A stretch of DNA of 64,000 bases from NCBI GenBank assembly GCA_036785375.1, contig JAWMAR010000005.1:3596001-3660000 (forward strand), written 5' to 3'. A model generated the notes under the pieces. It was not told where the DNA came from, made no database searches, and saw only the letters and a program-made list of their open reading frames with translations. Of the stretch, positions 1-59,000 are shown piece by piece. The stretch comes from Leucoraja ocellata (lineage: Eukaryota). The position numbers and the translations under genes are program-made. How positions within the stretch are numbered: position 1 is the stretch's first letter; every line of letters starts with the position of its first letter.

Positions 1-772
1 GCTTGGCTGGGATAACACTAACTTCCCTCGTTGATCCATGCACATCTGCACAAAAGCTAAATGAGGGCTCAGAACATGACCAAGTTTGCACTGTGACATT
101 TCATTGATTTACACGCAAAATCATCAGAAGCTTCAAACTGAAAGCAAGTAGTGTGACTGAGAAAACGGAGGAGCTGGGCAGATTATGTAGTGATGAGGTT
201 CAGGTGTATTGTTGTCATGGGTAACGGGGATACAGAGAAAAGCTTTTGTTTCAGCAACGGAGGGAACAGGAGCTGGGGGAAGGGAGAAACATCAATTTCA
301 TGTCCAAGTGCACGATGTATTAGATAGAAATTACAGCTCAAACAGGTCACACAGACGCAACATTTGAGAAACATTTAGACAGGTACATGGATAGGAGAGG
401 TTTATTGGGATATGGGCCAAACGCTGGCAGGTGGGACTAGTGTAGATGGGATTTGTTGGCCGGTGTGGGAAAGTTGGGCCGAAGGGCCTGTTTCTACACT
501 GTATGACTCGAGTCATAGCTTAACTAAGCCAGACTTAGTTAAGAACAGAAATCTGCATTTGCAGTGCGGATGTTGATTGTAATGTTTAGGAAATTAGAGA
601 CTCAGTGACATTTGTTACATCATAGCTTTTAACAACGGTGCACTCTATTCCTTTCCTATTGTGTACACATCCTGTCTGTGCACCAGACTGAGCAGGACTG
701 CAAACATAGGCGAGACACGGTCACAGGAGTATCAGGCATTAGATTGAACGCAAGCAGCCCTTAAAACAATAC

Positions 773-17000: not shown

Positions 17001-20000
17001 TACTTTAATGGTAAATCGCTCAGTACCTGGAGCTGTCCACAAAATCAGACACACATCTCTTGCTTTCTACCTTTCCCTGGGCACATCCCGACAGGTGAAA
17101 TGTCTTAAACATGAAACATTAACTATTCCTCTTTCCACTGGTGTGCCTAGCCTGTAACTTCATTGGAGATCTTTTAACTATCTTTAATTGGACTTTATCT
17201 TGCACTTAATGTTGTGCCCTTAATCCATTTCTGCACCGCGGGTGGCTTGATTACAATCATGTATATAGACTTTTCTTTACTAGATCGCAGGCGAACAAAA
17301 GCTTTCCACTGTATCTCGGTACTCATGACAGTAATAAGCCTAATTAATACTAAAGACTGCTTGCATCAAAGGCAGGCCTGAGGACTAATCATAGTTATTT
17401 TTTATACTATGGGGGGGGGGGGACCTCATTGAAATTTACTGAATAGTGAAAGGCTTGGATAGAGTGGATGCAGCGAGGATTCTTCCACTAGTGAAATAAT
17501 CTAGGTCATAGCCTCAGAATTAAAGGACATTCCTTTAAGAAGGAGATGAGGAGGAATTTCTTGGAATTTCTATGGAATTCTTTGCCAGGCTGTGGAGGCC
17601 AAGTCAATGGATATTTTTATGACAGTGATAGATTCTTGATTAGTATGGGTGTCAGAGGTTATGGGAAAAAGGCAGTAGAATGGGGTTATGAGGTAGAGAT
17701 AGATCAGCCATGATTGAATGGTGGAGTAGACTTGATGGGCCGAATGGCCTAAATTCTGCTCCGATCACTTTTGACCTCTACTTTAGTATGGCTTGATTGT
17801 GCACATGTATAGTGTGGTCTGATTTAATTGGGCAGCATGCAAACAAAAACCTTTCACTCTGCCTTGCTACATGTGACAATAATACAGTCAGCCTTTCAAA
17901 CAGGCAGCTCTGACAAGACAGACTAAATGACAGTCTCCATCCAGTGCTGTAATTATTATTAAAATTAATTGGTGTAATAATTATATAATTTTAATAAAAT
18001 ACAATTTATTTGGACATTAGGTTAACATTTATGAGATCTGTTATGCATAGGTTGGCTGCTAATTTCTATTAAAAAAAATATGACACAAGGACTGCAAATG
18101 CCGAAATCATGAGGAAACAGAAAGTGCTGGAGTAACTCAGCAGATCAGGCAGCATCTGTGGAGAGACTGTATAGGGAATGTTTCGGATCGGGACCCTTCT
18201 TCACTCAATGGGTAAGTGACATTTCAGGTCCTTCATCAATCTTAAGTATCTGAACCAGAAGCGTGCCTATCCACCCCCTCTACAGATGCTGTCTCACCTG
18301 CTGAAGCACTTTGTGGTTTGTTTTAGAAAACGTGGCTATGTTTCAAAGATTTTAATTGGGCAGGAAGCACCTTGGAATAGCTACAGCACTGGGTATACAA
18401 CAATCTGAGTTTAGTTTAGATATGTGGAAAAAGGCCCTTTGGCCCACTGAGTCCGTGCAGACCAGCAATCCCTGCCCACTAACACTCTCATACACTCACT
18501 GGGGACCATTTTTCCAAGCCAATTAGCTAATAAACCTGTTTAAGAAGGAGGGTCTGAAGAAGGGTTTCTGCCCGAAACGTTGCCTATTTTCTTCGCTCCA
18601 TAGATGCTGCTGCACCCGCTGAGATTCTCCAGCATTTTTGTGTAGCTTGTGTGTCTTTGCAGTGTGGGCAGAAACCAGAGCTCCCGGAGAAAATCCACAT
18701 AGGTCACGTGGAGAATGTACAAACTCTTGTACAGAGAGCACCCACAGTCAGGATCGAACCAGGATCTCTGGCACTAAGACAGCAACTCTGGTGCTGCACC
18801 CACAGTTCCGCCCTAATTAGTCGCTGCCTAATGTGATGCCTTTGGGAGCTACAAGCCTCTTACAAGCGGCTGAACTGTCCTTGTGTTGAGATCTGTGTTG
18901 AATTGCGCGCGGGATTTGTTTGTGCATTACCTTGTGCCTGGAGATCTGGGCCTGCAGCTGCTGGATGTTGCTGGTGGACACGGGCCTCTCCTGGATCTCC
19001 CGGTGCGCCCTTTCAATCAGCTGCTGGAGGTGCCTCATCTCTTGCTCATACTGTTCATACTGAATCACTGCCTCCTGCAGCACAAAGTGAAATGCAAAAT
19101 GATTGCTTACTATTAGACAAACTTTCCCCAGTTTATGCAGGAAGGAACTGCAAAGCTTCGGTTCACATCACAGATAGACACAAAATGCTGGAGTAAATCA
19201 GCGGGCCAGATAGCATCTCTGGAGAAAAGGAATAAACTTTCCCCATTTTAGTTTATTTTAGAGATACAGCGTGGAAACGGGCCCCTCAGCCCACCGAGGG
19301 TGCCAACCAACGATCACCCCGTACACTAGTTATATCCTGCACACTAGAGACAATTTACAGAAGCCAATTAACCTACAAACCTGGACGTCTTTGCAATGTG
19401 GGAGGAAACAGGAGCACCCAGAGAAAACCCACTTGGTCACAGGGAGAACGTACAAACTCCCTACAGACAGCATCCAAAGTCAGGATCGAACCCGGCTCTC
19501 GGGCAGCAGCTCTACCGCTGCGCCACAGTTACAAACATAATGGGCCCATCTGAAAATAATTTTGTGTGGCATCAATGGTTATGGTGACACAAGGAACAGC
19601 AGCTGCTGGAATCTTGTGTTGGAGTAACTCAGTGGGTCAGGCAGCATCCGTGGAGGACATGGATAGGCGACGTTTCAGGTCGGGACCTTTCTTCGGATTG
19701 ATTGTACTCGGGAAGAGAAAAGCGGCAAAGAGGTAGGGTGGATAGAGTCTGGAAAGTGATAGGTGGATACAGGCGGGGAGGGGGCTATTGGCACAACTAA
19801 AGGCTGAAGACTAGAAATTAAAAAGGGACTAATGACTGTCCGATAGGGAGAGAAGAGGAATGAAATGTAAAGCCAGAGGGAGGGGTTTGGGTGGAAGAGG
19901 ACAGGGAAAGGGGGGAGGGGAGTGGGAGAAATGTATGTGCACCAGGATAGAAGGGACACAGGAATGGAACAGGGGAACTGGAAAGTTGGAGAATCCAATG

Positions 20001-23000
20001 TTCATACGGTTGGGTTAGAGGCTGCTCGTGGAATATGAGGTGCTGTTCCTCCAATTTGCGTGTGGCCTCACTCTGGTAATGGAGGAATCCCAGGACAGAA
20101 AAGCCAGTATGGGAATGAGGTAGGAGTTAACATGTTTGGCAACCAACACATGGTTATGTTTCTGCTTCACTTGCAACTGAACCCGAGTAAGATTCACCAC
20201 AAGAGCAGCATTTATTGAACTGATCTTTCATGTCTCCTCCCCTTTGTCTCGTGACTGCCGAGGAACCTGGGCAGATGATCTTTTTGTTCTCTGGATGATG
20301 GAACTCATTGGCTGGCCAGGTGCTGTTGAAGGAGCCATGGTGAGGGGATGCAGCGTGCCCATTGTGCCACAGTGGGGAGAGGGGTCGGGCATCTTGTTCA
20401 ATGATATGGGAGGTAAACTAACAAGTGTCACCAGGTTGCATGGCCCACCCAACTCCTGCAGTCCCCAGATGTCCACCCACCCTGACTGGCTCGCAACAGA
20501 GAACAATGCAGCACTGTAGAATCTGACTGCGCCTGATGCAAGCCCACCTGCAGGATGTTGCACTGCTGGATGGCGGTGTGCTGCAGACGACTGGCTTCCT
20601 GCTGCAGCCTCAGCGCCGTCTGGCAGATGGGCAGGTTGGTGACGATTTCTTCCGGGATGCGCAGGGCGGCCTGGAGTTTCTGCACGACCTGTACCTTCTG
20701 CTTGAAGCCCTCCATGTCAGCCAGCAACCTCTAGGCAGAGGAAAAAAAGAACGCACACCGTCACTCCAGAAAGATGCACCGCACCTGAACCATGTGCTGG
20801 ACGCAGATCTGAAAGTAATTCCATAATCAGGCCTCAAAATTCCTGTAAGGGAAGTGTGTAATGGGAGATGGGATTGGACAAAAATTTAGGATGAAGCCTG
20901 ATTTCCATTGGGATCCTAACCCATTCACCTTCATATTAAAGGGCCTGCCATCTATCAGAAGTGTTACTTTGGACAGGATTGGGAACAGACAGGCTTCTCG
21001 ATTACTCACTTTAAACCTCAAAAAGAAAAACAATGGAACTCGTGAACTGGTAAGAATCTCAGTACGTGGGGAAAAGTAATCACCAACAGTATGGATCTAC
21101 AGTGCCATCCTACATTCAGGTTGCTAAGTCACGATGGCACACCTTGCTATGAATAGATCCGCATCGTGGGCAATCAATGGCGGCCTCCATGTTAGGACTA
21201 AAGGGCCTGTCCCACGAGCACGCGACTCCATGAGGCAAGCACAACCTAAGCGACTCCATGCGGCAAGCGCGACCTAACGTGGTCGCTTGAGCCGTACGGC
21301 CTCGCGGGGCCGGTCCCACTTCGATCACTGGAGCCGTATGGATTTGTGCGGAGCTGGACCCGACATCAGGCTCCGGGCTGGGCTCCGAAGAACTGACCAT
21401 GTTTACAAAATTCCGCGCGGCAACAGCCTGCCGGCCCGCAGCCTCCTCGATGCCGTATGTCACGCGTGAACTTCCCGCGGACTTCGCTCGAACTTCATGT
21501 CACTCACTCGACCCCTGCGCGGCCCCTGCTTCTGGTTAGGTCACGCTTGCCGCATGCAGGTGCATGCTGGTGGGACCGGCCCTTTAGGTCGTGCTTGTCG
21601 CATGGAGTCGCATGCTCGGGTAGACAGGCCCTTAACACTCCAGCACACACACACTGATGGGGGAATCACAAGGAATACGGGGACCTGTTTTTTGTTTACA
21701 TGGTGGTAAACGATGTGGTGCAGTTACGTACATCACGGGTTAGTGCCAAAGGAGCTGGTCACATACCCACTCCTACCTAACTTTGTTAATGGATGTTTTG
21801 TCTCTGCAGATCTGTGAAAGCCACATCTAAAGACGTCCACATACAGGCCTTGATGACACAGTGGAAGGCCCAATGAGAACAGTCAACCTTGCCTCAGCTA
21901 ATAACAATTTTGTCAGGCATCATAACATGATGTGTTCATGACCCAAGAGGGAGACTTTTCACCTTGTTTCTTTGAATGGTGGTATTGCTAAGTAAGATCA
22001 GTCATGCAGCGAGATGATGAGGGATTAAAGGGTAATTGTCCTTGGAGGAAACCAAAACATGCAAGATGGTAAAAATCTGAAATAAAAAGAGAAAGCAACG
22101 GAAGCACTGGGTCAGGCAGCATCCGCAGAGAGAAAAGCAAAGCAAATGCTTCAGGTCAATAACCCTCCCTCAAATCTTCGGCCTGAAGAGTTAACTTTGT
22201 TTCTCATTCTGCACACGCTACCAGACCTGCTGGCAGTTTGCAAAACATTCATGATGTTATATGGCGTTTGGGTTGAATAGATTGCTTTCATCGACAATCA
22301 TATGGGGAATTGTAAGGAACATAGATTTAAGATACTTAGCTCAAAATGCAAGAAATATTTTTTTTCGGCAGCAGTGGCTAACTTGAAATGATGGTGGAAG
22401 CAGATTCACTAACAGGAAGTTGACTTAATCCTGAAGGAAGGACGATTTGCAAGTCTGCAGTGGAAGGGCAAGGTGATGTAACCAGCTGGTTCACTCCTTC
22501 AAAGAGCCACTGCAAGCACAAGTTCTAAATGACCAACTTCTGTGCAGTACTGTACATTATCTGGTACCTGTCTTTGGAAGAGTTGCTCCTTTAGGCAGAG
22601 ACGAGCGAGCTCAGGAGAGGTCAGTGTAACTTGGGCCTGCTTCACCATGGCTTGCAGGCTCTTCACTTCGGTCTCAAACTGCTCCATATCCTGTGTGAGG
22701 TGCACAAAGCTGGTCAATGAAGTCAACTCATTAATGAGGTACCTGCGGCACTTGGTGACTGCCGCTCAGCCTGCCGTGATGGGTTTTCACAGCAATCCCT
22801 CCCAACACTTTCAATAGAGAACAAAAGCCGAGGTTCAGTGAAAACCTTTAGTTGCGTGCTAACCAGTCAGTTGAAAAACAATACGTGATTACAATCAAGT
22901 CATCCACAGTGTATAGATACATGAAAAAAGGAATAATGTGAATAACATTTAGTGCAAGATAATGTCCAGTAAAGTCTGATCAAAGATAGTCTGTGGGTCT

Positions 23001-29000: not shown

Positions 29001-32000
29001 TGGGCATCGCTGGTGGATGCAGACTCGGTGGGCCGAAGGGCCTGCTTCCCCGCTGTATCTCTAGACTAAACATGGATTTTGTGTAGGAAAGAACTGCAGA
29101 TGCAGGTTTAAATTGAAGATAGACAAAAAATGCTGGATTAACTCAGCGGGACAGGCAGCATCCTCCTTCTCTCCAAAGATGTTGCCTGTCCCGCTGTTAC
29201 TCCAGCATTTTGTGTCTACAAACATGGATTTTATCAGATGGGGATAGTTGTGCCCTATCCCATACTGCCCCAGCCAGTTATAGAATCATAGTGTGATACA
29301 GTGTGGACACAGGTCCTTCTCCCACACAGACCATGTCCCAGCTACACTAGTCCTATCTGCCCGCGTTTGGTCCATATCCTTCCAAACCGGTCCTGTCCAT
29401 GTACCTTTCTAACTGTTTCTTAAATGTTGGGATAGTCTCTGCCTCAACTAATTCCTCTGGCAGCTTGTTCCATACACCCACCATCCTCTGTGTGAAAAAG
29501 TTACTCCTCAGATTCCTGTTAAATCTTTTCCCCTTCACCTTAAACCTATGTCCTCTGGTTCTCGATTCACCTACTCTGGGCAAGAGACTCTATGTAATCT
29601 ATTCCTCTCATGATTGGGTGATGGGTCATGATGTCTCAGTTCCTGGTGGAACATCAGAACGCTGCCAGGTTAGCACATGCGTGCTGCCACCTAGCGGCCA
29701 TAGTGATAAAAGCCCTGGGGAGGAGCGCATGTCTAACCTGGTGGATCATCAGCTGGTCATTGAGCTGAGCCGCTGAATCCCAGACGATGTCGCTGTGGCT
29801 GAGGTGCTTCGCTCTCTCCACCCATTTCAGTACAAACTCCAGCATTTCGTGGAATTCCTCCAACTGGGAAGCGGCCTGTGGAGAGCAATGGGAGAAGAAG
29901 ATTAGAACAGTGTTCAGGAAAAGCCAACACGATTCTCAGAGGCAAAAATGAGCCGGGTTCTGTCAAGTGCAAGGTCCAGCTGACAATGGTTCAAATGAAG
30001 TCGCAAGAAATGGGATATGGGCCAAACTCAGGCAGTTGGGGCCAAACTCAGGCAGGTGGGGCCAACATAGATGAGGCACCTTGGTCGGCATGGGCAAGTT
30101 GGGCCGAAGGGCCTGTTTCCATGCAGTATGACTCTATGAATCTAAGCAACTGCAGATGTTGATTTACAAAAGTAACTCAGCGGGTCAAGCGGCATCTCTG
30201 GAAGACATGAACGAGAGATGTTTCAAGTCGTGGCCCCATCCCAAAACATTGCCTATTCATGTCCTCCAGAGATGCTACTTCATGTTTTGAATGAGTTGGA
30301 GGATGGGTGTTGTCAAGGATATGATATCTGTTGTCCTTGACACAAAGCAATCAGTAACCTGTCAAAAGTCAACATGAGAAAAGTTTAGGCATCTTCTTCC
30401 AGTGTCCATGTCCTGGTGGTCACTATCTGCCCGTCTCCTCTCCTCTGCTGAAGGTTCTAACACTAGTCTGGTTTCTTCACCCTGTCACCTCTGAGACCCA
30501 GGCACTGAGTGTTGGCATTGTATCTATGAACAGGTCACGTCACAGGTAAGCAACATCACCTGCTTCTGCCCCTCCCTCCACTTTAGTCCCACATACCAAA
30601 ACAACCGCTCTGCTTATGGTGACCCTAGTCTTCATCCCTCCCTGCAATAACACTGCATCCTTCAAACCTCCGGCTCCTTGCAACTAAGTGTTCAGTTACC
30701 TTATTATATATAGTTTTTTCACTTCCCCATGAAAACCCATATACCATTCTATAAATTATGGCCATGGTTCTGAATTCCCCCATCAGAAGAAATAGTTTCT
30801 CTCTATCCATCCTAGTGATTCTTTTAATCAACACTTTAGAGAACACGGAACGGCACAGTGGTGCAGTGGTAGAGTTGCTGCCTTACAACGCCAGAGACCT
30901 GGGTTCGATCCGGTCTACGGGTGCTACCGATACGGAGTTTGTACGTTCTCCTCGTGACCTACGTGGGTTTTCTCTGGAATCTCCAGTTTCCTCCCACACT
31001 CCAAAGATGTATGGGTTTGTAAATTAATTGGCTTGGTATAACGGTAAACTGTCCCTAGTATGTGTAGGATAGCGTTAGTGTGCGGGGATCGCTGGTCGGT
31101 GCGGACTCCATGGGCCGAAGGACCTGTTTCTGCATTGTATCTCTAAACTAAACTAAACTAAATCAAGCACATTGAAGTAGATTGATATAAGATCTGAAAC
31201 AACACAGTGCTGATAAAAGGCCAAATACTGTTGTATGCAGAGCCGGCGCTGCTTACCTTGTTGAGTTTAGAGGCTCTGTACTCAGTCTCTCGAAAGACCT
31301 GCTGATAGAGGCTGGACAGTTTAGTCATGTCATCCATCAGCCGCTTGCTCTGCTGAGGGTTCTGCTCCATGAAATCCTGCACGGTGGCATCCAGTTCCAC
31401 CAGCTTCACGTTGCAGCTGTCCAGCCTGTCCCAGAGCCTCTGCAGGGATAACAAACCTCATGTAAGTAAGCAATGCCCTGTCCTGGGTGAATATGGAACT
31501 TATCAAGTGCACAGCAAACCTACTCCTCAACCTTGTGTGGGAAGGAACTGCAGACTCGCGTTGAGTTACTAGAGCTTCACTCGTTCAGGAGATGCACCTT
31601 GCAGACAATGGAAATGGTTTAGGCTGTCGGGTGGATGAGGGGGAAGGTGAGTCACTCATTATAAGATCCCAGCCTCGTTATATGATGTGGAGATGCAGGT
31701 AAGTCCAGAGGCCATGTTTGAGTTTAAATACTCCCTTACCCAAAATCGGCAAACAATATTGTTTCATCAGTTTGAGAGTCCTGGCTGTACATAAATTGCC
31801 TTGAGTATGCGCTTACACAATGACATTGTTTGCAGTGCAGGCAATCACTCAACTGAGGATGCTTCTACCATTGCGACGGGGTTCTGCATGAATTTGTTAT
31901 TTCCTTCTTGTTCTCATCCCATCTTGATGTCAAACTGATAAGAGGTGACGGAGCAAGGGAACACAGGCAGCAGAACTGGGATCACACGTATAAAGCTTCC

Positions 32001-44000: not shown

Positions 44001-47000
44001 TTGCTGTGATTTGATCGCCCCTTTCTCTCATCCACCTTTCTTTACTGCTCCCCCCCTGCAATCAGTCTGAAGAAGGGTTCTCGAGAGATGCTTCCTGACC
44101 CGCTGAGTTATAGTATTCCAGCAATTTGTATTTGTTTTTGTCAAATAAATACTCTTGATTATTGTCTGGGCTAGACACACGGTCTCTTGCCCAGTGTAGG
44201 GTAATCGAGAACCAGAGGACGTAGGGTTAAGGTGGGGGGGTGGGGGATGGGGGGAGAAAGATTTAATAGGAACCCGAGGGTGGAACCCTTTTCATGCGAA
44301 GGATGGTAGGTGTATGGAACGAGCTGCCAGAGAAGGTAGTTGAGGCAGGTACTATCGCAAGGTCTAAGAAACATTTAAACAGGTACATGGACAGGACAGG
44401 TTTAGAGGGATATGGGTCAAATGCGGGCAGGTGGGACTAGCCTAGATGGGACTTTATCAGTTAATTTATTCATGTTGGGCCGAAGGGCCTGTTTCCAAGT
44501 GTACAGTTTTGGTTTCCTAATCTGAGGAAAGACATTCTTGCCATAGAGGGAGTACAGACAAGGTTCACCAGACTGATTCCTGGGATGTCAGGGCTTTCAT
44601 ATGAAGAAAGACTGGATAGACTTGGCTTGTACTCACTAGAATTTAGAAGATTGAGGGGGGATTTTATACAAACTTACAACATTCTTAAGGTGTTGGACAG
44701 GCTAGATGCAGGAAGATTGTTCCCGATGTTGGGGAAGTCCAGAACAAGGGATCACAGTTTAAGGATTAGGGGGAAATCTTTTAGGACCGAGATGAGAAAA
44801 ACATTTTTCACACAGAGAGTGGTGAAACTCTGGAATTCTCTGCCACAGAAGGTAGTTGAGGCCGGTTCATTGGCTATATTTAAGAGGGAGTTAGATGTGG
44901 CCCTTGTGGCTAAAGGTATCAGGGGGTATGGAGAGAAGGCAGGTACAGGGATACTGATTGGGGATAATCAGCCATGATCATATTGAATGGTGGTGCAGGC
45001 TCGAAGGGCCGAATGGCCTATTCCTTCACCTATTTTCTATGTTTCTATGTGTGTATATATTTATACAATGGTATATGGACACACTGATCTGTTCTGTATT
45101 CGTGCCTACTATGTTCTGGTGTGCTAAAGCAAAGCAAGAATTTCATTGTCCTATCTGGTTCACATGTCAAAAAACGCTCTTGATCTTGGACATGTTGGCC
45201 GGTGTGGGCTAGTTGGGCCGAAGGGCCTGTTTCCAGGCTGTAAGACTCTATGACCCATGTTTTGTCATTTTATTGAGAGACATTGTTCTGATTAGTCAGC
45301 ATCGCGTCTCTTCCAATTCCCTTCCCCTCTGGCAGGTCGCATCTACCCAAGGTACTGACTAACCTTCTTGGTGCTCAGCATTTCCTGGACTTGGGCCTCG
45401 AGCTGGGCGAGCTCACTCAGGTTGGTCTCCACCTGTGGCGGCATCAGCTCCTTCGACTCGGAGTACTTGTCCTTCTCCTTGCCGCTCAACGCCGCCATGA
45501 TCCGAAGAGTTGACTGCACCTCCTCCTCCAGGATCTGGGACTTCCGTATCTCCTCCTGGATGCTCTGAAGCTTGACGTCCAGGTACGCGGCAACGCCGAG
45601 GTCCCCCTTGATCTTCCGCAGCCACTCGAGGGTGCGCTGGATCTCGGTCTGGAAGTCGATCCTCTGGACGAGCCTGCCCTCGCACTCTGTTATCCTCCCG
45701 CCGACTGTTCCCTGGGCCGTCTCCAGGGCCTCTCTCCAGGCCTGGATTTGCAGGCTTCTCGCCTGATGAGCGCCGCTCTCCAGCTCGGGCGAAAACTGTT
45801 CCACTTGCTCGATCAGCCTCTTCAGAAGGCAGCTGGTGGCCTGCACGCCTCCGGCCAGGGCGTGGTAGTTCTTCAGCTTCTCCTCGAGGGTGAGGGTCTC
45901 CTGGTTGGTCTTGGCCAGGCCCTCCTGCAGCGCCTGGAGCTGAGCCTCCAACTGCCGGGAGGTGGCCTCGTGCTCCAGGTAGGCCGAGACTGTGTCTCCC
46001 AGCATGGACACCCTCAGCTCGGTCTGGCGCTTCAGCCGGTTGTACAGGCTGCCCAGCCCCGCCATCTCGTCGGGCTGCCAGGGTTGTCCCGAGCTTCGGA
46101 AGGTCTCTTTCCTCTGGTTCAGCTCGTCCACCGCTTTGCCCAGTCCCACCACCTCGCCCAGCAGGGTGCGGTAGTCAGCCTGCACCGATGCTGCCTCCTC
46201 GGAGGAAAGCCTCAGCTTGCTTTTGCCCATCTGGACCAGCTGGTCCTCCAGCTCGCTCAAAGCCTTGCTGGTCATGTCGATGAGGGAGATGTACTCTTTC
46301 CTGCCCGCGATGGCCTCTTGGATCTTCTCCGACTTCTCCTTGGCCAGGCCGATGATGGCGTTGAACTGCTTGGGCAGGGCGTTGAGCTTCTCGTCCAAGA
46401 AGGAGTGGTCGGCCTCGCTGAGGGAAGGCAGGAGTTCCCGGCCGCTCCTCTGCACCAGGAGGAGCTGGTTCTCATACTCGGGGCACTGCTCCAGGAGGAG
46501 CTGGTACTTGGCCAGCTGGACACACAGCTCCGCGTCGCTGCTCATCAGGCTGGTCTGCGGGAAGGTCAGGATGTCGGCCTGCTTCAGCCAGTGGCACACC
46601 TTGTCCAGGTCGGCCTTGAAGTACTTCCTGGAGGCCAGGATCCTCTCCAGCCCCTGCAGCCGCTGCGCGCTCTTCTGCACCGCCGAGTCGTAGGCGGCCT
46701 GCAGCTCCTGCAGGTGGGTCATTATTTCTGTCGTCTCTTCCTCGGCCGCCTCCCGGGCCAGCTCCCTGCCCTGGGCCCAGAGAGCCGCCACGTCGGCCTG
46801 GTACTCTTTCAGGCTGGCGCAGGCGGCCTTGCAGGCCCGGATCTGCTTGGCGACGTCCAGCGGCATGAGGGCGACGTGCTCCGGGGTGGTGGCCGCCATC
46901 TCGGTCTGCCGGATCCAGCCGACGGCCGGGCCCAGCGCCATGAGGAACTGGGTGCGGTCCGACAGGGCCCGGCTCAGATACCTCCTCCGCTGCCCCACCG

Positions 47001-50000
47001 CCTCGCTCAGCGAGCCCATCCTCCCGTGCAGGGCGCCCAGCGTCTTCTGCAGCCGCTGCCGCTCGTCCAGGCCCAACCGGGCCAGGATCTTCTCCGCCTC
47101 CGTCGTGGCCGCGCCGTGGGCCAGCTGCTGCGACTCCAGCTCGCTGCAGCTGGCGATGTGGTCCAGCAGCAAGGTCTGGGCCAGCTCTGCCGGCGGGCTG
47201 CACCGCAGGGCCTCGGAGATAAGCCGGGTCTGACCCTCGGCCCAGTCCAGCAGGTCCTCCAGCTTGGACTGGCACTGGCTCAGCTCCTCCAGGGTGGTCA
47301 CGGAGACCTGGATCTTCCTCTCCAGCAGCTCCTCCAGTTGGGCCCACTGTTTCTCATAGTGGCTGGTCTGCTCCTTGATCAGCTCCTTGTCCTCAGGGTT
47401 CAGGCGCTCCATCAGCTTCTGCTTCTGCTCCTTCAGGTCATCCAGCACAAACCTCTGAGCCTGCACCGCGCTCGCCAGCTGCTTCAGGGCTTCCAGGAGC
47501 TCCGCTGTGCTCTCCGCGTCCGTTCTGTTGCAAAGAAACCAAGACAAGAAGGGTCAGAAGTGAGTGCAATTGCACGTAAAGGGCCTGTCCCACAAGCATG
47601 CGACTCCATGCGGCAAGCGCGACCTAAAGGGCCTGTCCTACGAGCATGCGACTCCATGTGGCAAGCACGACCTAACGTGGTCGCTTGAGCCATACGGCCT
47701 CGCGGGGCCAGTCCCACTTCAATCGCCAGAGCCATATGGAGTTGTGCGGAGCTGGTCCCGACATCGCGGGGGGCTCCGAAAAGATGACCGTATTCAAAAA
47801 TTCCGCGCGGCAATGGCCTGCCGGCCCGCAGCCACCTCGACGCTCGAACTTCATGTCACTCACACGACCTCCGCACGGCCCCCGCTTCTGGTTTGGTCGC
47901 GCTTGCCGCATGGAGTCACATGCTCGTGGGACAGGCCCTTTAGTCACAAAGTGCTGGAGTAACTCAGCGGGTCGGGCAGCATCTCTGAAGATAAGGAATA
48001 GGCGACTATTTCAGGTCAGAACCCCTCTTCGACTGCACCTTGTCTGAAGAGCAACCCAAGTTAACCTTCCCTGTCTTAATTAGGTTTTTCGGAACATTTC
48101 ATAATAAACTCACAAGGAAGTACTGGCTCAAAACTACTGCCAAAATCAGCAAAGGCCCACACCTCCCTATCCATGCTCTCATTTCATCAGGAAGAAGATA
48201 TAGAAATCTGAAAACCATGACCACCAGGTTCAAGAATAGCTTCTTCCCAGCAATCATCCGGCTCTTGAACACTACACAACACCAACCTTAGCCATGACCT
48301 TCTATGAACTGTCTTTGATTACACCAAAGAGTTTGGTGTAGTGTTGTCATTATTAGTTTATTAAATTTTTCTATATTATATATTATCTATGACATTGTTT
48401 ACAGGCCTGTTGTGCTGCAAGTAAGGATTTCACTCCTCCATTGTCAGAGTGAGGCCCAGAGTGAGACCCAGTCATAGTGAGGAACAGCACCTCATATTTC
48501 ACTTGGTAGACAAAAATGGTGAAGAAACTCAGCAAGTGAGGCAGCATCTATGGAGCGAAGGAATAGGTGAAGTTTCGGGACGAGACCCTTCTTCAGACTG
48601 AAGAAGGGTCTCGACCCGAAATGTCACCTATTCCTTCGCTCCATAGATGCTGCCTCACCCGCTGAGTTTCTCCAGCATTTTTGTCTACCTTCGATTTTTC
48701 CAGCACCTGCAGTTCTTCCTTAATCATATTTCGCTTGGGTAGTTTACACCACAGCGGTATGAACATTAACTTCTCTATCCTCAGATAGCCCTTGCTTTCT
48801 CTCTCCATCCCCCTTCCCAGTTATCCCACTAGTCTTATTGTCTCTGACTACATTCTATCTTTGTCCCGCCCCCTCCACTGACATCAGTCTGAAGAAGGGT
48901 CTTGACCCGAAACGTCATTCATTCCTTCTCTCCAGAGATGCTGCCTCACCCGTTGAGTTACTCCAGCATTTTGTGTCTATCTTGCAGTGTTTTAATAACC
49001 TGATGGCTGTTGGGAAGAAGCTGCTCCTGAACCCGGGCGTTACAAACTCCGACATATTCTTCCCGATGGCAGGAGTGAAATGAGTGTGTGGCCTGGATGG
49101 TGTGGGTCTCTGATGATGCTGGCTGACTTTTTGAGACGTCGCCTCCTGTAGATCCCTTTGATGGTAGGGAGGTCAGTATCCGTGATGGACTTGGCAGTGC
49201 TCAGAGATAATAGTATGAACAAAGTGTAAGATCTGGAGAGAGGGGATGTGGTGTGGATATTTCCACGAGTGGGAGAGTTCAGGACCAGAGGTCGTAGCCG
49301 CAGAATTAAAGGATGTTCCTTTGGAAAGGAGACGAGGAGGAATTTCTTTGGTCAGAGGGTGGTGAATCTGTGGAATTCATTGCCTCAGAAGGCTAAGGAG
49401 GCCAAGTTAATGGATAGTTTTAAGGCAGAGATTGGTAAATTCTTGATTAGTAATAGTGTCAGGGGTTACGGGGAGAAGGCAGGGGAATGGGGGTGAAGAC
49501 GGAAGGGTAGAGTAGCCATGATTGAATGGCGGAGTAGACTTGGTGGACCGAATGGTGTAATTCTGCTCCTATCACTTATGAACATCTAACTATCCCTCCA
49601 CTCACCTTCCTAGGTCGTCCCATTCTTTGGTGAACTTGTCCAAAAGCACTTCCACGATGCTCATTCGGTCTTGATAATCCCTGGCCCACTGCTGGTCCCG
49701 CTCCCTCATGGAGAGCAAGGTGTTGCTCTGATGGCACAACTCCAACCACTGGTTGCTCAAATGGCCAACCTCTGAGTGCTCGGGTGACTCAAGACCTTCC
49801 GTCAGGTTACTGATCTTCTCAGTGAGTGTTGTAATATTTACCTGCCTGGATTGGAGTTGATGGCCCAAATCCTGAAAATGACAAACACATACAATCCGTT
49901 GCAGTTGGGCGGCACGGTGGCACACAGGTAGAGTTGCTGTCTTACAGCGCCAGAGACCCTGGTTCGATCCTGACTTCGGGTGCTTGTCTGTACAGAGTTT

Positions 50001-53000
50001 GTATGTTCTCCCTGTGACCTGCATGGGTTTTCTCCGGGATCTCCGGTTTCCTTACACACTCCAAAGACGTACAGGTTTGTACGTTAAAATTGGCTTGGTA
50101 TAATTGTAAATTGTCCCCAGTGAGTGTAGGATAGTGTTAATGTGCGGATATCGCTGGTTGGCAGGGACTCGGTGGGCCGAAGGGCCTGTTTCTATGCTGT
50201 ATCTCAAAATATATATAAATAAAAACCAAAGAGTTATATAAGATGTTGGTGAAGCCGCATTTAGAGTATTGTGTTCACGTTCTGAGCACCAAGTTAAGGG
50301 AACGATGTCAAGTTGGAAAGGGTGCAGAGAATGTTTACAAGGATGTTGCTAGGACACGAGGGTGTGAGCTATAGGGAGCAGGCTAGGACTCTATTCCCTG
50401 GAGCGCAGAAGGATGAGAGGTGATCTTATAGAGGTTTTTTAAATTATGAGAGGAATAGATCGGGTAGACACACAGAGTCTTTTGCACATAGTAGCGAAAT
50501 TGAGAACTTGAGGTCACATATTTAAGGTGAAGGGGAAAAGATTTTATCGGAATCTGAGGGGTAACTTTTTCACACAAAGAGTGGTGTGTGTATGGAACGA
50601 GCTGCAGGAGAAGGTAGTTGAGGCAGGGACTATCGTAACGTTGAAGCAATTAGACAGGTGCATGGATGGGAGAGGTTTAAGGGGATAAGGGCCAAACGCA
50701 GGCAAGTGGGACTAGTGTAGTTGTGACATGTTGGTCGGTTGTGGGCAGGTTGGGCCGAATGGCCTGTTTCCACACTTTATAACTCTATACAATTTTAATC
50801 ACAGATTGAACACCGATTTTCTGGCATCCTTGGTTCCAGAGCCTTACAGGATTAGCCTTTTGTCTGGACGAATAGAGGTCACGTGATAATGAAACGACAA
50901 TAGTTTACATGGTAAATGGTAGGGAATTGAAGAATGCAGTTGAACAGAGGGATTTGGGAATATCCATGCATAGTTCCTTGAAGGTGGAATCTCATATAGG
51001 TAGGGTGGTAAAGAAAGCTTTTGGTATGCTAGCCTTTATAAATCAGAGCATTGAGTATAGAAGCTCAATGTAATGTTAAAATTGTACAAGGCATTGGTGA
51101 GACCAAACCTTGAGTATGGTGTACAATTTTGGTCGCCCAATTATAGGAAGGATGTCAACAAAATAGAGAGAGTACAGAGGAGATTTACTAGAATGTTGCC
51201 TGTGTTTCAACAACTAAGTTACAGAGATAGGTTGAATAAGTTAGGTCTTTATTCTCTGGAGCGCAGAAGGTTAAGGGGGGACTTGATAGAGGTCTTTAAA
51301 ATGATGAGAGGGATAGACAGAGTTGATGTGGACAAGCTTTTCCCTTTGAGAATAGGGAAGATTCAAACAAGAGGACATGACTTCAGAATTAAGGGACAGA
51401 AGTTTAGGGGTAACATGAGGGGGAACTTCTTTACTCAGAGAGTGGTAGCGGTGTGGAATGAGCTTCCAGTGGAAGTGGTGTTGGCAGGTTCATTGGAATC
51501 ATTTAAAAATAATTTGGATAGGCATATGGGTGAGACGGGAATGGAGGGTTATGGTATGAGTGCAGGCAGGTGGGACTAAGGGAAAAAAGTTGTTCGGCAC
51601 GGACTTGTAGGGCCGAGATGGCCTGTTTCCGTGCTGTAATTGTTATATGGTTATATGGTTATATGGTTAATAGATTCAAAAGATGTGGAAGTGAATGGCA
51701 TTGAGATAGAGATCAGCCATATCTAACTGAAAGAACGGGCCATTCACAGGGCAAGGCTAAATGACCAAGTGATAATTCTATAAAATGAAAACCTTTTACA
51801 ACAAATGACAACGTCTTAGGTCCCTCCACAGGTGCTGCCTGATCAGCTGAGTTCTTCCAGCACTTTGTGTTTTGCTCATGATTTTCAGAGAGTTGTGAGT
51901 CTGTGGAATTATCTGCCTCAGAGGGCGGTGGAGGCAGGTTCTCTGGATGCTTTCAAGCGAGAGCTAGATAGGGCTCTTAAAAATAGCGGCGTCATGGGAT
52001 ATGGGGATAAGGCAGGAACAGGATATTGATTGGGGATGATCAGCCATGATTACATTGAATGGCGGTGCTGGCTTGAAGGGCCGAATGGCCTACTCCTGCA
52101 CCTATTGTCTATTGATTGCAGCTACTGCAGTTCCTTTGGTCTCTATTGTGTTGAATGTATCTCAGTGAATCCCTTACCTGCACTTGGGCCAACAGGTTCT
52201 GGGCAATCTTCAGTTCCAGTTCTGCGGGTCTCCTCTTCAGGCTATGGAGCTGTTGCTCGGTGTCCAGGAAATACGCGGAGAGCTCCGTTTTGTGTCGTTT
52301 GATCTCCTCCCAGCCTAGGGCCAGCTCCTGTGACCTGACCAGGTGCTGTTCTATCTGTAATACAAGGCAGCCTTGCTTCACTGGATAGCCCCCAGCCGTC
52401 GCAGTAACATTGTGGTGGAGGGATGTGGAGAAGTGGTGAAGGGGGACAAGTACAAATCGATGAGGAAATGTCCCCAATGAATTCCTGTCCCACTCCAGCT
52501 ACTGGAGCCCAAACTCTCTGCTGAGAGTCTGATTCCATACGTTCGGAGTTCTGAATGTGGAAGGTGCCACATCCACTCGGGTCGGCACGGTGGCGCAGCA
52601 GTTGAGTTGCTGCCTTGCAGAGACAGAGACCCCGGGTTAGTTCCTGACTATGGGTGCTGTCTGTACGGAGTTTGTACGTTTTTCCTGTGACTGCGTGGGT
52701 TTTCCCCGGGTGCTCCGGGGTTTCCTCCCACACTCCAAAGACACACACATTTATAGGTTAATTGGCTTCGGTAAAGATTATAAATTGTTTCTAGTGGGTA
52801 GAATAGTGCTAGTGTGCAGGGTGATCGCTGGTCGTTGTGGATTCGGTGGGCCTAAGGGCCTGTTTCCACACCGTATTTCTAAACTAAGCCAAGCTAAACT
52901 AAGCTAAAACTGCCACAGATATTAGTTGATATTTTTTATGCTGGTTGGTATTTAGCACTAAACCAATATTTGAAGACAGGTCACACTTGCAGCTCTCCTT

Positions 53001-56000
53001 AGCCTAAAAGGGGTGTTGTACTTGGAATGACAGCAGTGCTCGGTCAAATAGGTTGGGAGTGTTGCAAAAATTTGATGTGTTAACTTACCATTTGTTTGGT
53101 GTGTTGGATGTCTCCTGCTGCCTTCTTGACAGTGTCGTCGGACAGGTCACACATGCAACAAAGGAGCTCCAGGTACGTGCTCGCCTGCTCCTGCAGGGCC
53201 CGGTAGTGTTTCACCTGCAGCAACGTGGAGTCCAGGATTATTAACAGGTACATGAGGAAACCATGCACTGCAGATGCTGGTTTACAAAAAGACACCGAGT
53301 GCTGGATTAACGGCGCAGTGGCGCAGCAGTAGAGTTGCTGCCTCACAGCGCTTGCAGCACCGGAGACCCAGTGTCGATCCCGACTACGGGTGCTGTCTGT
53401 GTGGAGTTTGCATGTCGTCCCCGTGACGTGCGTGGGTTTTCGCCGAGATCTTCGGTTTCCTCCCACACTCCAAAGATGTACAGGTATGTAGGTTAATTGG
53501 CTTGGTGTATGTGTAAACTGTCCCTAGTGTGTGTAGGATAGTGTTAATGTGCGATGATCACTGGTCGGCGAGGACTCGGTGGGGAACATGGCTCAGTGAT
53601 GTTTCAGTTGGACCCTTAAATGATTCATTGAAACTTTACTGTCACTTGTACCTATGAATAGTGAAATGCTTTGTATTGCATACAACCCGGTAGCATCATA
53701 TAGCAGACCTCTCCTAGGCAGTACACAAGTGTTGCCACATCTGTGGTGCTGCCAATGTTACATAAACTCACCGAATAATCCTATATTCTGCCTGGCAGCT
53801 GGAGGCCTCCCACCTGGTTCCTCTTCGTTCTTCCGCCCCCCCCACGCTCACCACATGTCGGGTCCCCTTAATTCTCGGCACACCCCCCACACCTTCCCGC
53901 CGGGTACCCCCATTGTTCTCGGCAGCCCCAACCCCCATTCCCCACCCCCCTCCCTCCCCCATGCTGGGTTCCTCTTCATTCTCAGCGGCCCCCTCCAGAA
54001 CGTCAGGATGTTTAGTCTGGTTACCTGTTTGATTGACTTCTTTGGGCTGGTGGGCGGGTGAGCTTGGACCTCCAGCTCCTGCTGCACAGTCTGGAGCCAG
54101 GTCTGGCACTGCTGCAGTGTGTCCTGGTGGCTCACATGTTTCTGGAGCTCGCATTCCAGACTCTGGTACAACTGTGAAGGAACAAGTTAAACAGAGGCAG
54201 AGAGTTAGTCACCAGCAAGCGTGATCACAACTCTGTGCCATCCACATACTAAAGCCATTTGCCAGCCATGCCACCCACCATGGTGACGACTATGGCAGCC
54301 TTGCCTATGAATAACAGGACCGAGAAAAGGCTATGGGTGTAATAGAGTCGGCACAGTGGTGCAGCAGTAGAGTTGCTGCCTTACAGTGCCAGAGACCCGG
54401 ATTCAATCCTGACAATGGGTGCTGTCTGTACGGAGTTTGTACGTTCTCCCTGTGACTGAGTGGGTTTGCTCTGGTTGCTGCGGTTTCCTCCCACACTACA
54501 AAGACGTACAGGTTTGTAGGTTAAATTGGCTTATGTAAAATTGTCCCTGGTGTATAGGACAGTGTTAGTGTATGAGGTGATCACTGGTCAGTGTGTGAAC
54601 TCAGTCAGTTGAAGGGCCTATTTTCGTGCCGTATGCCTAAAGTCTGGTGTCTAGAGTCTGCTTGCTCCCTTTGCCCAAACCAATGCTCCCATGTTTGTGT
54701 AGAAAGGAACTGCGGATGCTGGTTTATACCGACGATAGACACAAAGTACCGGAGCAACTCAGCATCGCTGGAGAAAAAGGATGGATGACTTTTTGGGTCG
54801 GGTCCGAGTCAGTTCCGGTATCAAAAAGTGTCCCAGCCCGAAATGTCACCCATCCTTTTGCTCCAGCGATGTTGCCTGACCCGTTGAGTTACTCCAGCAC
54901 TTTGTGTCCATCATCCCACGTTAGTATTGGTCTTACCGCTGAAGAGAGAGTTGGGGAGAAGAGCGATTCACCTTGGTTCAGGGATGGTGTAATGGAAGCA
55001 ACATTCATGGTATGAATGCAAACAAGAACAAGTGTAGATGTGGGTGTACTTAAAGACCATTCCTTTACCCTCTGAGCTGTGCTACAGATGGCAGAGTAGC
55101 TGTCCCGGATCCCCTGTAGATGTCCTTGGACCTGGTGCTTGAATTTTCCTTGGAGCCCCTCCGAGCAGTTGGCAATCAGGCTGTCTCCTTTGTTTCTCAG
55201 ACTCGCCAGGGCGTGTTCAAAACCGGCAATCTCCTCCATTATCGGCTGTTGGGAGAGAGAAAGTCGGCACACAGAGTCATCACGGAGTATATGGAAGTAA
55301 TATTGGCCCTCAGCTATGTCACACCATTCAATTACACTTTGCTCACCACTACAGAGCTCTCACTCCAGGAGAAAATAGTCGACTCCATTCACCATCCATC
55401 CACCACTCAGCCTCCAGTCATGGTGCACCTCCAGAAAGCCCTGGAGCACACTGGGGCCTCTTCAACAAATTTGTAATCTCCATCCTGCCTACTCTTACTG
55501 AATGATGCACCGCTGGCCCAAGCCAGCATATATTGCCTCTCCTAGCACACTCTACCTTCAAGAAGGCAGTGTACGCAAGCTTCCTGAACAGCCACAGTCC
55601 ACGTGGCTAAAGTTATCCAACAATGTTAGGTAGAGAATTCATCGGCTTTGATCCGTGGTGGAGAAAGACAGTGGAATAAGTCGACGTCTGACCCATTGGG
55701 GTAGATATCGATTTCTGTCATCCTATGTACCTGCGCACGGCCATCCATGCTGTAGGACTCTATTTGTTATTATATCTCCCTTAATTGTCCCTAAAACCAT
55801 AGCTACTTCACCCTTGACCTCCTGTACTCATGGAGATGCAAAGAATCATCGGAAAGAATAGGCGCACAAGTAAGCCATGCAGCCACTCAAGCCTGCGGAC
55901 CGCACCCACCTTATGTCTGGCCAGGTGCTGGGTTGCCATCTCTAGGTTGGTGCTCTGGGTGGTATCGTGGGCCACCAGCCTGGTGGAGATCTGCAGCAGC

Positions 56001-59000
56001 CACTTTTCCACCTCTTGCAGGTTGCTGTTGTAGTCCTCATGCTCCCTCACCTTCTCTTCCAGGTCCTCCTTGCAGACCTAAGCAAACAAGCAGAACATTG
56101 GCCACCAAACCTTTTAAGTGGGTGGGAAATATTCCAATCCACACTTATCACCTGGGCGTTACTAACAAGTCTGTCTTGAATAAAACACTGATACTACCAT
56201 ATATAGAACTGGGTTGCTTCAGAATCCAGTTTGTAGTCAACCTTGCTGATGAGGTGATGGAGCCTTGCTCAGATCCAAATCAGCCTCCGTACAATTATCA
56301 ATCTGGCAGTGACCAAGACGACCTAGGCTTGAGTCCTAGGCTTTTCGACCTTAGACTTTAGATTTAGGGATACAGCAAGGAAACGGGCCCTTCGGCCCAT
56401 CGAGTCTGTGCCGACCAATGACCACCCCATACACTAGCGCTATCTATCCTGCACACTAGGGACAATTTGTAATGTTAGCAAGGCTAATTAACTACAAACC
56501 TGCACCTCTTTGAAGTGTGGGATGAAACTGGAGCACCCGGGGGAAACCCACGTGGTCAGGGAAAGAACGTACAAACTCCATACAGACAGCACCCGTGGTC
56601 AGCATCGCACCCGGGTCACTGGCGCTAAAAGGCAGCAGCTCTACCGCTGCACCACCACACTGCCCGTGCCCTTTTGTGGCCCTAACCTTGACTTCAGGGG
56701 TGTGTGTCGACTTGGAGAACTCTGAATGCTCCTTACATTGGACCCTCACCCCTGCTAACACCTGGGTAAACCTTCTATTGATTATCAGATGGTGGATTCC
56801 ATAACACCAAGTACTTTGTGTGGCAGTGTGGCCTTTGGGGCTCTCTTATACTCCACCCTCAGATCGTGGAAACTTTATCCTGACCGTAAGGATCCTCATC
56901 CCGACGATTTTAAAAAAAGCTTTTTTTTTAATTACATGCTTTCCAGTCAGCACAAAGACTGCACATGATCACAAACAAGCCATCCACAGTGTAGCGATAC
57001 AGGATAAAGGGAATAGCATGGTTATGATAAGAAATTCTGCTGTTGAAAGAAAAATTGAAAAGAGTTGAGTGATTGTAATGAATGACAGCAGAGCCACTTC
57101 TGGGGCCAGCACTCAAAGAGTCGCCTGCCTTCGCCGCCATCTTGGATCAGCTGGGGGTCACTGGTGTCTATACCCGTGCATGGGTATATTTGCTCTGATC
57201 ACTCGGCCTCATCTTAGGTTCCTTGCAACTCGTAGATTCAATGTAAGGCACTTGCCCTAATACTGGCAACTCTACTGCCCCTTACCCCAACCGTGGAGTT
57301 GACAAGCTGACTCTGGGCCTCTCAACACCAGAGAGCCCAGATCCTGGCTGTAACCATGGCACCCACATCCCAACCCTGAGGCCTTCACCGTGGTTCACTT
57401 ACCGTCACCGTGGAGCACAGCTCCTGGTAGTCGGACAGCAGTCTCTTCAGATTGTCACTGACGGCGGGGTCATGAACGAGATCAAAGACTGCCTCGCCCC
57501 TCTCGATCACCAACCTTATGCCTGGCTCGTGGGATACAACTGTCTGCTGGATGGCCTGAAGCAGGGAGGAGAGGTTAACTCAGAGATTTTACGTGGCAGG
57601 TCTTGGCATGAATGTAAGCAGAGAACCATTGTCATCACTAGAGGGCAAAATGTGTGAGAATGAAATTTTGAACTAGGTACTTTATCAAGAAGAGTAACTC
57701 AGCGGATCAGGCAGCATCAGAGGAGAAAAGGAATAGATGACATTTCGGGTCGAGACCCTTCAGACATTAAGACCTTCAGTCAGAAGAGGGGTCTCGACCC
57801 GAAATGTCTGTCCGCCTAAACCTACATGATCTCCCAGTTGCTGGACACTTTAACTCCCCCTCCCATCCCTACACTGTGCGCAAATTGGAGGAACAGCACC
57901 TCATATTACGCTTGGATAGCTTACCACCCCCCCCAGTGGTATGAACATTGACATCCCTAACTTCAAGTAACCCTTACCTTCCCTCTCTCTCCATCCCCTC
58001 CCCCTTCCCGGTTTTCCGACCAGTCTTACTGTCTCCGACTACATTTTATCCGTTCCCTTTGATGTTACCTTTGCCCGGCTAACAATGATCTATTCTACAT
58101 TTTCCCTGATCTCTATTCCGTTTGCCTGTTTTCACACCTTCACATTTACTTATCTATGTATCTCCCTCCCGCCCTGACGTCAGTCTGAAGAAGGGTCTCG
58201 ACCTGAAACGTCACCCATTCCTTCTCTCCGGAGATACTGCCTGTCCCACTGAGTTACTCCAGCCTTTTGTGTCTATGTCGTAATCAACCTTAGTTGATTA
58301 ATAATCAAAAGTCTGTAGCCTCCTTTTGCTCTGGTATTTTATTTCATTCACATGTTTAAACTATAATGTTTTATTCTTAATGGTTTACTGTATGTCGTGC
58401 TGTTGCTTGTGAGTGGAGCACAGAGGCAAATTCCTTGTATGTGTACATACTTGACCAATAAACTTATTCATTCATTCACTCATTACACAGGCATGCTGGA
58501 GACACTGGGCTGTGGTTCTCGTTAAATCTAGTAGATTAAGCAGGATATGGGGAGAAGGCAGGAAAAGGGTACTAATTGGGGATGATCAGCCATGATCACA
58601 TTGAATGGCGGTGCTGGCTTGAAGGGCCGAATGGCCTACTCCTGCACCTGGTGTCTATTGTCTATAAAATGGGGTCTCTGGCCAAGCAGAGTCAGGCAGC
58701 ATCACCATCTGCAGCCACTGTATGTCCAATCACTTAATTATAGAAGAAACTTAAAAGACAGATCCTGACAGATTTACACAGTGAGTCCTTTCACAGTAGA
58801 ATTGTTGAGAGAGGAAACTGGGCCTTATCTCCAGCAATGTCCTCAACGCCCCTCACCTTGTACTTGGCCAGCTGGGCTTTCTTCTCATACAGTTCCACCT
58901 TTGGCTCAACCGGGATCTGTAAGATAGCCTGATAGTCTGCCAGCCACTTGGTCTGGCTCTGGTATTTATCGGTGAACTCCTTTGTGAGGGAGAGACATTT

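Follow-up and report, generated by a model that had tools for sequence, protein, structure and literature searches.

The hammerhead motifs scattered over 64,000 nt of Leucoraja ocellata contig JAWMAR010000005.1 (positions 3,596,001 to 3,660,000; hereafter the window) are almost certainly minimal hammerhead ribozymes in the terminal repeat, or pseudo-long terminal repeat (pLTR), of an autonomous Neptune-type Penelope-like element (PLE), as judged from sequence. An initial annotation of the window had recognized a minimal hammerhead with an ACGU palindrome in Penelope pLTRs, which we uphold, and had called the family largely non-autonomous, which did not survive the analysis below. On balance, we consider it likely that the hammerheads belong to the autonomous element and that the scattered copies are neutrally decaying fragments, mostly run-off cDNAs of its uncut leader.

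Hammerhead motifs in the window and in the genome

Motif positions are numbered from C3 (= 0), which places the cleavage site between +27 and +28. A strict minimal-hammerhead descriptor (core, extra base, 4-bp stem II, ACGU, and UH) returned exactly five intact cores in the window, at 18554, 35307, 48889, and 58185 on the plus strand and at 32107 on the minus strand. These are the five annotated initially as intact or near-intact, and their stem II loops (UUCU, CACG, CUUG, CUCG, and, at 32107, CUUG) are as listed then. The copy at 35307 is without stem I, and that at 18554 carries GUU, not GUC, ahead of the cut site. A profile hidden Markov model built on 161 natural copies was run on the window, on 80 unselected 10-kb stretches (800 kb, all from the 80 largest contigs), and on reversed sequence. 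It gave 47 family matches in the window, among them all eleven decayed sites annotated before and ~30 additional fragments, and 408 in the unselected stretches; since the reversed sequence gave none, the family signal is not due to chance. The strict descriptor found 29 intact cores in the 800 kb and 0 in its reversed control. One young 46-mer has 27,344 exact copies in the genome, and extrapolation from the 80 largest contigs, inflated by haplotig duplicates, puts the number of fragments at ~1.7 million and that of intact cores at ~125,000, which bears out the very high abundance claimed initially. An Rfam scan returned no hammerhead family among 17 matches up to E 5, only hairpin artefacts on inverted pairs. 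The window region itself recurs ~430 kb away on the same contig (G000:C5:4045444-4079864; L001, L012) with 100% identity in probes, and this recurrence is a haplotig or segmental duplicate.

The motif had been placed just 3' of Penelope endonuclease and reverse transcriptase (RT) codons. The copies at 58185, 48889, 35307, and 19696 are indeed preceded by GIY-YIG C-terminal codons, but a pyrimidine-rich untranslated region (UTR) of 120-290 nt separates codons from hammerheads, and most window copies are without coding sequence. RT codons (open reading frame [ORF] aa 661-784, E 1.7e-40) adjoin the 32107 copy only. The copies with intact cores and their immediate neighbors are as follows.

18552-18648 (+), short copy of the youngest subfamily, beginning 2 nt ahead of its intact core (18554-18581, GUU triplet)
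32023-32110 (-), short copy, intact core 32107-32080; sense to the host spectrin-repeat (presumably nesprin-type) pre-mRNA
32123-32500 (-), RT fragment of Penelope covering ORF aa 661-784 at 65% identity and directly abutting the 32107 copy
35019-35366 (+), GIY-YIG C-terminal codons, 3' UTR, and intact core 35307-35334 without stem I
48455-48506 (+), GIY-YIG C-terminal codons of an older copy, split by an inverted pair and resuming at 48724
48507-48726, head-to-head inverted pair at a TCAG-N-CTGA quasi-palindrome, with a ~36-nt tail on the plus-strand copy only and a ~14-nt target duplication
48724-48983 (+), remaining GIY-YIG end, UTR, and intact core 48889-48916
57807-58276 (+), GIY-YIG C-terminus, UTR, intact core 58185-58212 (G-U via CpG decay), and pLTR end

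The autonomous element

The search for a full-length Penelope ORF with the same pLTR, suggested with the initial annotation, was successful: among 20 loci chosen by match to the 5' part of the Penelope ORF, one holds an unbroken 1,240-aa ORF. The unit consists of a hammerhead, an end site at +91..97, an optional tail to ~+130, an ATG ~35 nt further on, the ~1,240-aa ORF, the 120-290 nt UTR, and the next hammerhead. Two same-strand hammerheads 3.2-4.4 kb apart flank the ORF start at 7 of the 20 loci (L082, L090, L091, L092, L098, L099, and L101), and at locus L317 three units, one of them with an intact ORF, follow each other seamlessly in tandem with a period of 3,985. The protein displays DKG, QGVAMG, and YIDD motifs, a CX4CxxC linker (CNRKRCNTC), and, at its C terminus, a GIY-YIG domain; scores below the Pfam cut-offs were obtained for RVT_1 (E 6.8e-6) and for GIY-YIG (E 0.025), and relatives carry PF26215. 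A PDB search with the RT-endonuclease part gave no sequence relative at E 0.1. The placement in Neptune relies on a linker layout shared with Nematis, which we take to be excluded by host range only. All 150 scored matches of the 111-aa endonuclease from the genome are at 100% identity, and the closest named proteins come from Leucoraja, Hypanus, Mobula, and sharks, in keeping with the elasmobranch family suggested initially.

At L095:3479-7198 (minus strand), the conserved N-terminus is separated from the RT by a long segment (aa ~170-500) that is rich in proline, bears repeats, and varies in length among copies; it recalls the N-rich inserts of rotifer PLEs. Long frames from the first protein search were rejected as elements, being a segment of which several contigs carry duplicates; frames resembling retroviral env and gag (L031:780-2132 and L034:7605-9298) lie in such a segment.

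Selection on the core and decay of the copies

Distant relatives (80 metagenome loci, ~50% endonuclease protein identity) hold 35 sense versus 6 antisense cores, most of them ~100-140 nt behind the ORF. Across 16 aligned natural sequences, all 9 pairs of stems I and II show double changes, with a covariation score reached by 0/500 shuffles; relatedness and the stem II filter weaken this result for stem II, not for stem I. The extra A ahead of stem II is invariant in these rows, G10.1-C11.1 is present in 14/16, and ACGU in 16/16. Because the core occupies the same position in distant relatives and its stems are compensated there, the alignments indicate that the motif is selected between lineages, that is, in the master elements.

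Within the genome, 190 of the 455 family matches extend over the core; they sort into six main age classes with divergences of 5-17%. The six subfamilies differ at 0/11 core columns versus 15/59 downstream columns (Fisher P 0.10), an excess conservation of the core that falls short of significance. Both subfamily changes at paired positions (U-A to U-G at 2.1/1.1, and in stem II) keep the pair. Private non-CpG decay amounts to 125/1853 (6.7%) in the core versus 593/7716 (7.7%) in those downstream columns that are invariant. For the CpG sites of the palindrome and of G12 the rate is 23-24%, and ACGU is often lost in this way in old copies. We are highly confident that the dispersed copies decay neutrally after insertion. 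Stem II loops succeed one another between age classes (CCCG, CUCG, UUCG). The loop and G-U variation among window copies, described initially as varying loops with kept pairing, is mostly post-insertion CpG decay and not covariation; real covariation, by the alignments, is found only between lineages. The window copies sit in introns of a minus-strand spectrin-repeat gene, which we take to be nesprin/SYNE, and show no purging of sense copies (24 sense versus 20 antisense, n=44).

Predicted folding and cleavage

Stem I is 2 bp long in 19/29 intact copies, compared with a median of 3 in distant relatives. Folding models have the downstream UUCCUUC pair with GAAGGG at the expense of stem II, whose predicted probability exceeds 0.5 in 4/27 intact copies versus 19/28 distant relatives; skate copies and distant relatives could not be told apart by the double-hammerhead energy gap (26.2 versus 26.6 kcal/mol). 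According to these models, the motif would probably cleave little without protein help, and the doubt about activity voiced initially is supported by the 2-bp stem I and the predicted rival hairpin. In published tests, minimal hammerheads showed no cleavage as monomers and low cleavage as dimers (PMC4209133), 1/9 tested dimers of non-LTR retrozymes cleaved (bioRxiv 10.64898/2026.07.22.740005), and the hammerhead of the anole element PAc was protein-dependent and dispensable for insertion, with uncut RNA as the main substrate and RT starting internally (PMC11167929). As far as these sources go, motifs of this type are weak, which agrees with the poor folding predicted here.

Thousands of reads from three raw RNA runs of related organisms, of both strands, include the motif; they display no pile-up of read starts or ends at the cut site, a weak test since passenger copies swamp the depth and the libraries were fragmented. 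A search of sequencing runs yielded none on record as RNA among the runs listed with the motif. At L091:2988-3036, reads and contigs of related organisms contain joints stepping back 26-34 nt, which are small tandem repeats of the region from stem II to the cut site. Over L091:2500-3100, reads of runs X23 and X24 are ~4-10x commoner on the strand antisense to the element; calibration with 56 reads on a host exon suggests that reads of these runs are sense to their RNA, and the excess may reflect priming bias or an antisense promoter.

The short stem I raises the possibility that the motif is no longer catalytic in the skate lineage and is kept as promoter DNA or as an RNA-binding site of the protein. 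The youngest class fits this, with its GUU triplet and AACGUU palindrome (52/60 whole cores are identical), as do downstream blocks as invariant as the core and a word that resembles the downstream promoter element, as we take its consensus to be, and overlaps ACGU with a 4/5 match. Loss of catalysis is nevertheless unlikely in our view: both subfamily changes at paired positions preserve the pair, and N17 is still a permitted base.

Ends of the copies

Copy ends in unselected DNA were analyzed for 373 of the 408 matches, the 35 at stretch edges being dropped. A young set comprises 93 distinct copies among the first 100 matches listed, on one contig, with the UTR known and with starts past +38 invisible by design; a wider young-type set has 218 ends. 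In unselected DNA, 144/373 copies begin at -9..+4 and 8/373 at +28/29. The young set has 17 starts at -2, 36 at -9..+4, 1 at -10..-49, and 29 further upstream, and 23/218 young-type ends lie at -2, with 4 (3 events) at +28. In all, 85/93 young copies begin upstream of the cut site and run through it. Since just 11/97 solo copies of the 5'-end peak share an upstream flank, the peak cannot be put down to the lack of a UTR model.

At the 3' side, young copies end at +91..97 (61/93) or at +125..134 (26/93), a tail signature. A head-to-head arrangement is seen in 122/373 unselected copies, with a one-sided tail in 45/62 inverted pairs. Target duplications of 7-19 nt flank 30/49 solo young copies versus 59/2,352 control pairings. 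A leap from -2 into the internal ORF was seen in 1/222 copies by blastn, in addition to the 32107 case in the window. A start at the cut site as the main source of short copies was ruled out by the counts at +28/29 (8/373 and 4/93), and the idea that the -2 end stems from a splice acceptor, with CAG following a run of pyrimidines, was ruled out because target duplications abut -2 and no exon is shared.

In the window, the plus-strand copy at 57776-57810 stops at about the cut site (+27/+28) and runs straight into endonuclease codons, microhomology blurring the joint; no such 3' end occurs among the 373 sampled copies. The inverted pair at 48507-48726 lies inside an older copy of its own family, and similar insertions at L075 and L079 hint at self-targeting.

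About two thirds of young insertions are <140 nt and have their own target duplications, and, for one 3' variant, short copies outnumber long ones 17 to 2. Together with the reported derivation of retrozymes from pLTRs (bioRxiv 10.64898/2026.07.22.740005, as far as this source goes), these counts would suit an independent non-autonomous family, like a short interspersed nuclear element (SINE) or a retrozyme, with its own promoter and mobilized in trans. We regard such a family as very unlikely. All three 3' variants are common to short and long copies, a start at -2 loses the initiator-like word discussed below, and no retrozyme-type tandem array of short hammerhead units was found in the window, while 3/222 copies have a same-strand pLTR piece directly upstream; the skate family is not a retrozyme array. 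Because intact ORFs and tandem units exist and the 3' variants are shared, the short pieces look, from their sequences, like by-products of autonomous masters.

A model of copying and its alternatives

The RNA of the element would have its 5' end at about -2, probably a transcription start within the initiator-like word TCAGT, which is invariant in six subfamilies although only its last 2 nt pair and which presumably fits the initiator consensus. By analogy with the anole element in vitro, RT may start at two internal sites. A start in the 5' repeat with run-off at about -2 would give the short copies of 100-135 nt, about two thirds of young insertions; short copies that begin at -2 must come from uncut RNA. 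A start in the 3' repeat would give the long, randomly truncated copies, which could also arise from resealed circles. The ribozyme may act in master transcripts only, as a protein-assisted double hammerhead between two repeats, with low yield, and is predicted to be misfolded unless the protein of the element helps. We give run-off of a leader from an RNA start site an even chance.

Several observations count against this model or its premises. At +28, 4/131 short ends (3 events) were observed for a local mean of 1.4 (Poisson P ~0.05 counting 4), and some cutting may occur. Among the 16 5' ends linked to an ORF, just 2 are situated at -1 or +4, and 8 pass seamlessly into an upstream unit or repeat, a run-on that needs read-through, strand transfer, or circles. 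A cap-derived G is not clear (the base before -2 is G in 9/23 copies and that before -3 in 1/5) and is not separable from a templated G at -2. Position -2 is the exact 5' edge of stem I, which an end set by structure or protein would fit equally. Moreover, the excess core conservation within the genome is not significant, stem II pairing in the alignment is partly circular because matches were chosen by the stem II filter, and the folding models leave tertiary contacts and co-transcriptional folding out of account.

Three of these points, namely, the coincidence of -2 with the outer base of the 2-bp stem I, the missing cap-G signal, and the seamless passage of most ORF-bearing copies, would be expected if -2 were a stop rather than a start, with 5'-3' exonuclease decay or RT release halting at a protein-bound hammerhead and the protected RNA of 100-135 nt being copied. 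We think this rather unlikely, given that naked RNA is not predicted to form stems I and II and that TCAGT is invariant beyond its paired bases. In addition, the available text of the sources describes a promoter internal to the pLTR in Drosophila Penelope (PMC2377424) and an Inr-like (initiator-like) word in rotifer pLTRs (PMC3846280).

Efficient cutting in vivo, with unit-length RNA ligated into circles and copied round to tandem arrays and copies across the resealed cut (the model of Cervera and De la Pena), would account for a core invariant from relatives in invertebrate hosts to the skate, for the seamless 3,985-nt array, and for the small excess of +28 starts. We judge it quite unlikely, as the dominant start at -2 is impossible from a cut or circular template, the ribozyme is predicted to misfold, and the three RNA runs lack a cut-site pile-up, weak as that test is.

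Leader run-off might also be the first half of a retrovirus-like two-step copying, in which -2 to ~+130 is redundant at both RNA ends and a strong-stop cDNA is transferred to give seamless partial tandems, the short copies being failed transfers. We find this extension doubtful; if it were true, the 2-bp stem I would be exactly what the transcription start leaves of the hammerhead.

Other features of the window

The other family copies are listed below; those at 18103 and in the last two listed groups were absent from the initial annotation.

3374-3454 (-), short copy, decayed
8503-8584 (-), short copy, decayed
12889-13006 (-), short copy, decayed
14978-15056 (+), short copy, decayed
15305-15398 (+), short copy, core broken at A13
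18103-18203 (-), decayed copy
19612-20126 (-), old-subfamily copy with GIY-YIG end, long UTR, and core broken at U4
36917-36993 (+), decayed copy
37492-37597 (+), short copy, palindrome destroyed by CpG decay
40144-40312, head-to-head pair, decayed
57692-57808, head-to-head pair, decayed
60105-60211 (+), GIY-YIG C-terminal fragment, no hammerhead match behind
42672-42759 (-), 47941-48033 (-), and 44058-44138 (+), decayed copies
13193-13341, 14729-14907, 16692-16891, 29100-29219, and 54717-54912, inverted pairs

Many exons of the spectrin-repeat protein gene lie on the minus strand at 1735-59246, including a large exon at 45346-47553. Other dense repeat families (D2, D3, D7-D10), e.g., at 10032-10317, 30849-31162, 49909-50224, 8177-8265, and 44817-45049, resemble what we take to be V-SINE/HE1 and CR1-type long interspersed nuclear element 3' ends. 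Tandem units of 28 and 48 nt make up another short repeat family (21222-21277, 47577-47675, 47800-47940), which is unrelated to the hammerheads.

Comparison with known systems

Our literature search found no description of the chondrichthyan family, of a strong-stop product, or of the -2 peak; outside its scope lay most subscription journals as well as Repbase, Dfam, and the Cervera 2014 and Li 2026 supplements, of which the last four may hold one. Minimal hammerhead ribozymes (min-HHRs) of metazoan PLEs were described in 2014 by Cervera and De la Pena (PMC4209133), which in the portion covered here names no chondrichthyan. By all sequence tests but the length of stem I, the skate motif belongs to them. 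It has CUGANGA ... GAAA ... UH in the order of a type I core, the extra base between 9 and 10.1, G10.1-C11.1, palindromic 15.1-16.1 and 15.2-16.2 with no stem III loop, and the pLTR location, and it occurs in both flanking repeats of the PLE ORF at L317 and the seven two-hammerhead loci. As in that report, most motifs are dispersed singly in truncated elements, and opposite-strand pairs occur. Unlike there, stem I has 2 bp instead of 4-5, and stem II 4 bp compared with 7-8 in Schistosoma; the ~125,000 extrapolated intact cores compare with ~4,000 in coelacanth and ~9,000 in Xenopus, counted with a different descriptor.

The element resembles the endonuclease-containing (EN+) PLEs of the Neptune clade, as far as described by Craig et al. 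2021 (PMC8557442), in its single ORF with RT, CX2-5CxxC linker, and GIY-YIG in this order, and in its partial tandems, inverted 5'-truncated partner, and 30-40 nt tail at one end. The same source gives the linker before the endonuclease for Neptune and Nematis, not Poseidon. The skate element differs from Neptune PLEs in the ~500-aa proline-rich N-terminal part and in target duplications lying in ordinary sequence rather than microsatellites; a sharp 5' end 2 nt ahead of the core is not described for Neptune PLEs in the portion of that article covered.

With the Poseidon element PAc of Anolis carolinensis (Frangieh et al. 2024, PMC11167929, as far as covered), the skate element shares two 3' end sites ~35 nt apart, copies from uncut RNA, and the lack of read ends at the cut site. 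PAc is of a different clade and its ORF starts inside stem II, while the ATG here lies ~165 nt downstream of the core; PAc alone was tested in vitro. Short-stem-III hammerheads (Lunse et al. 2016, as cited in the reviews PMC6765202 and PMC6466107) are likewise linked to PLEs and are described as cleaving in dimeric form. Non-LTR retrozymes (Li et al. 2026, bioRxiv 10.64898/2026.07.22.740005), in the text available to us, are also pLTR-derived, hammerhead-bearing, and reported in one chondrichthyan, but are defined by short-unit tandem arrays, whereas the skate copies lie dispersed, either solo or as head-to-head pairs.

Both the motif and the class of its host were already known, which makes the find an ordinary one. 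It is valuable as material: the Neptune element is intact and very young, and its near-identical insertions, tens of thousands in number, provide base-exact records of starts and ends. The transposition mechanism of PLEs has been reconstituted only once, for another clade, and the skate family offers a natural intact ORF together with a sharp 5' end.

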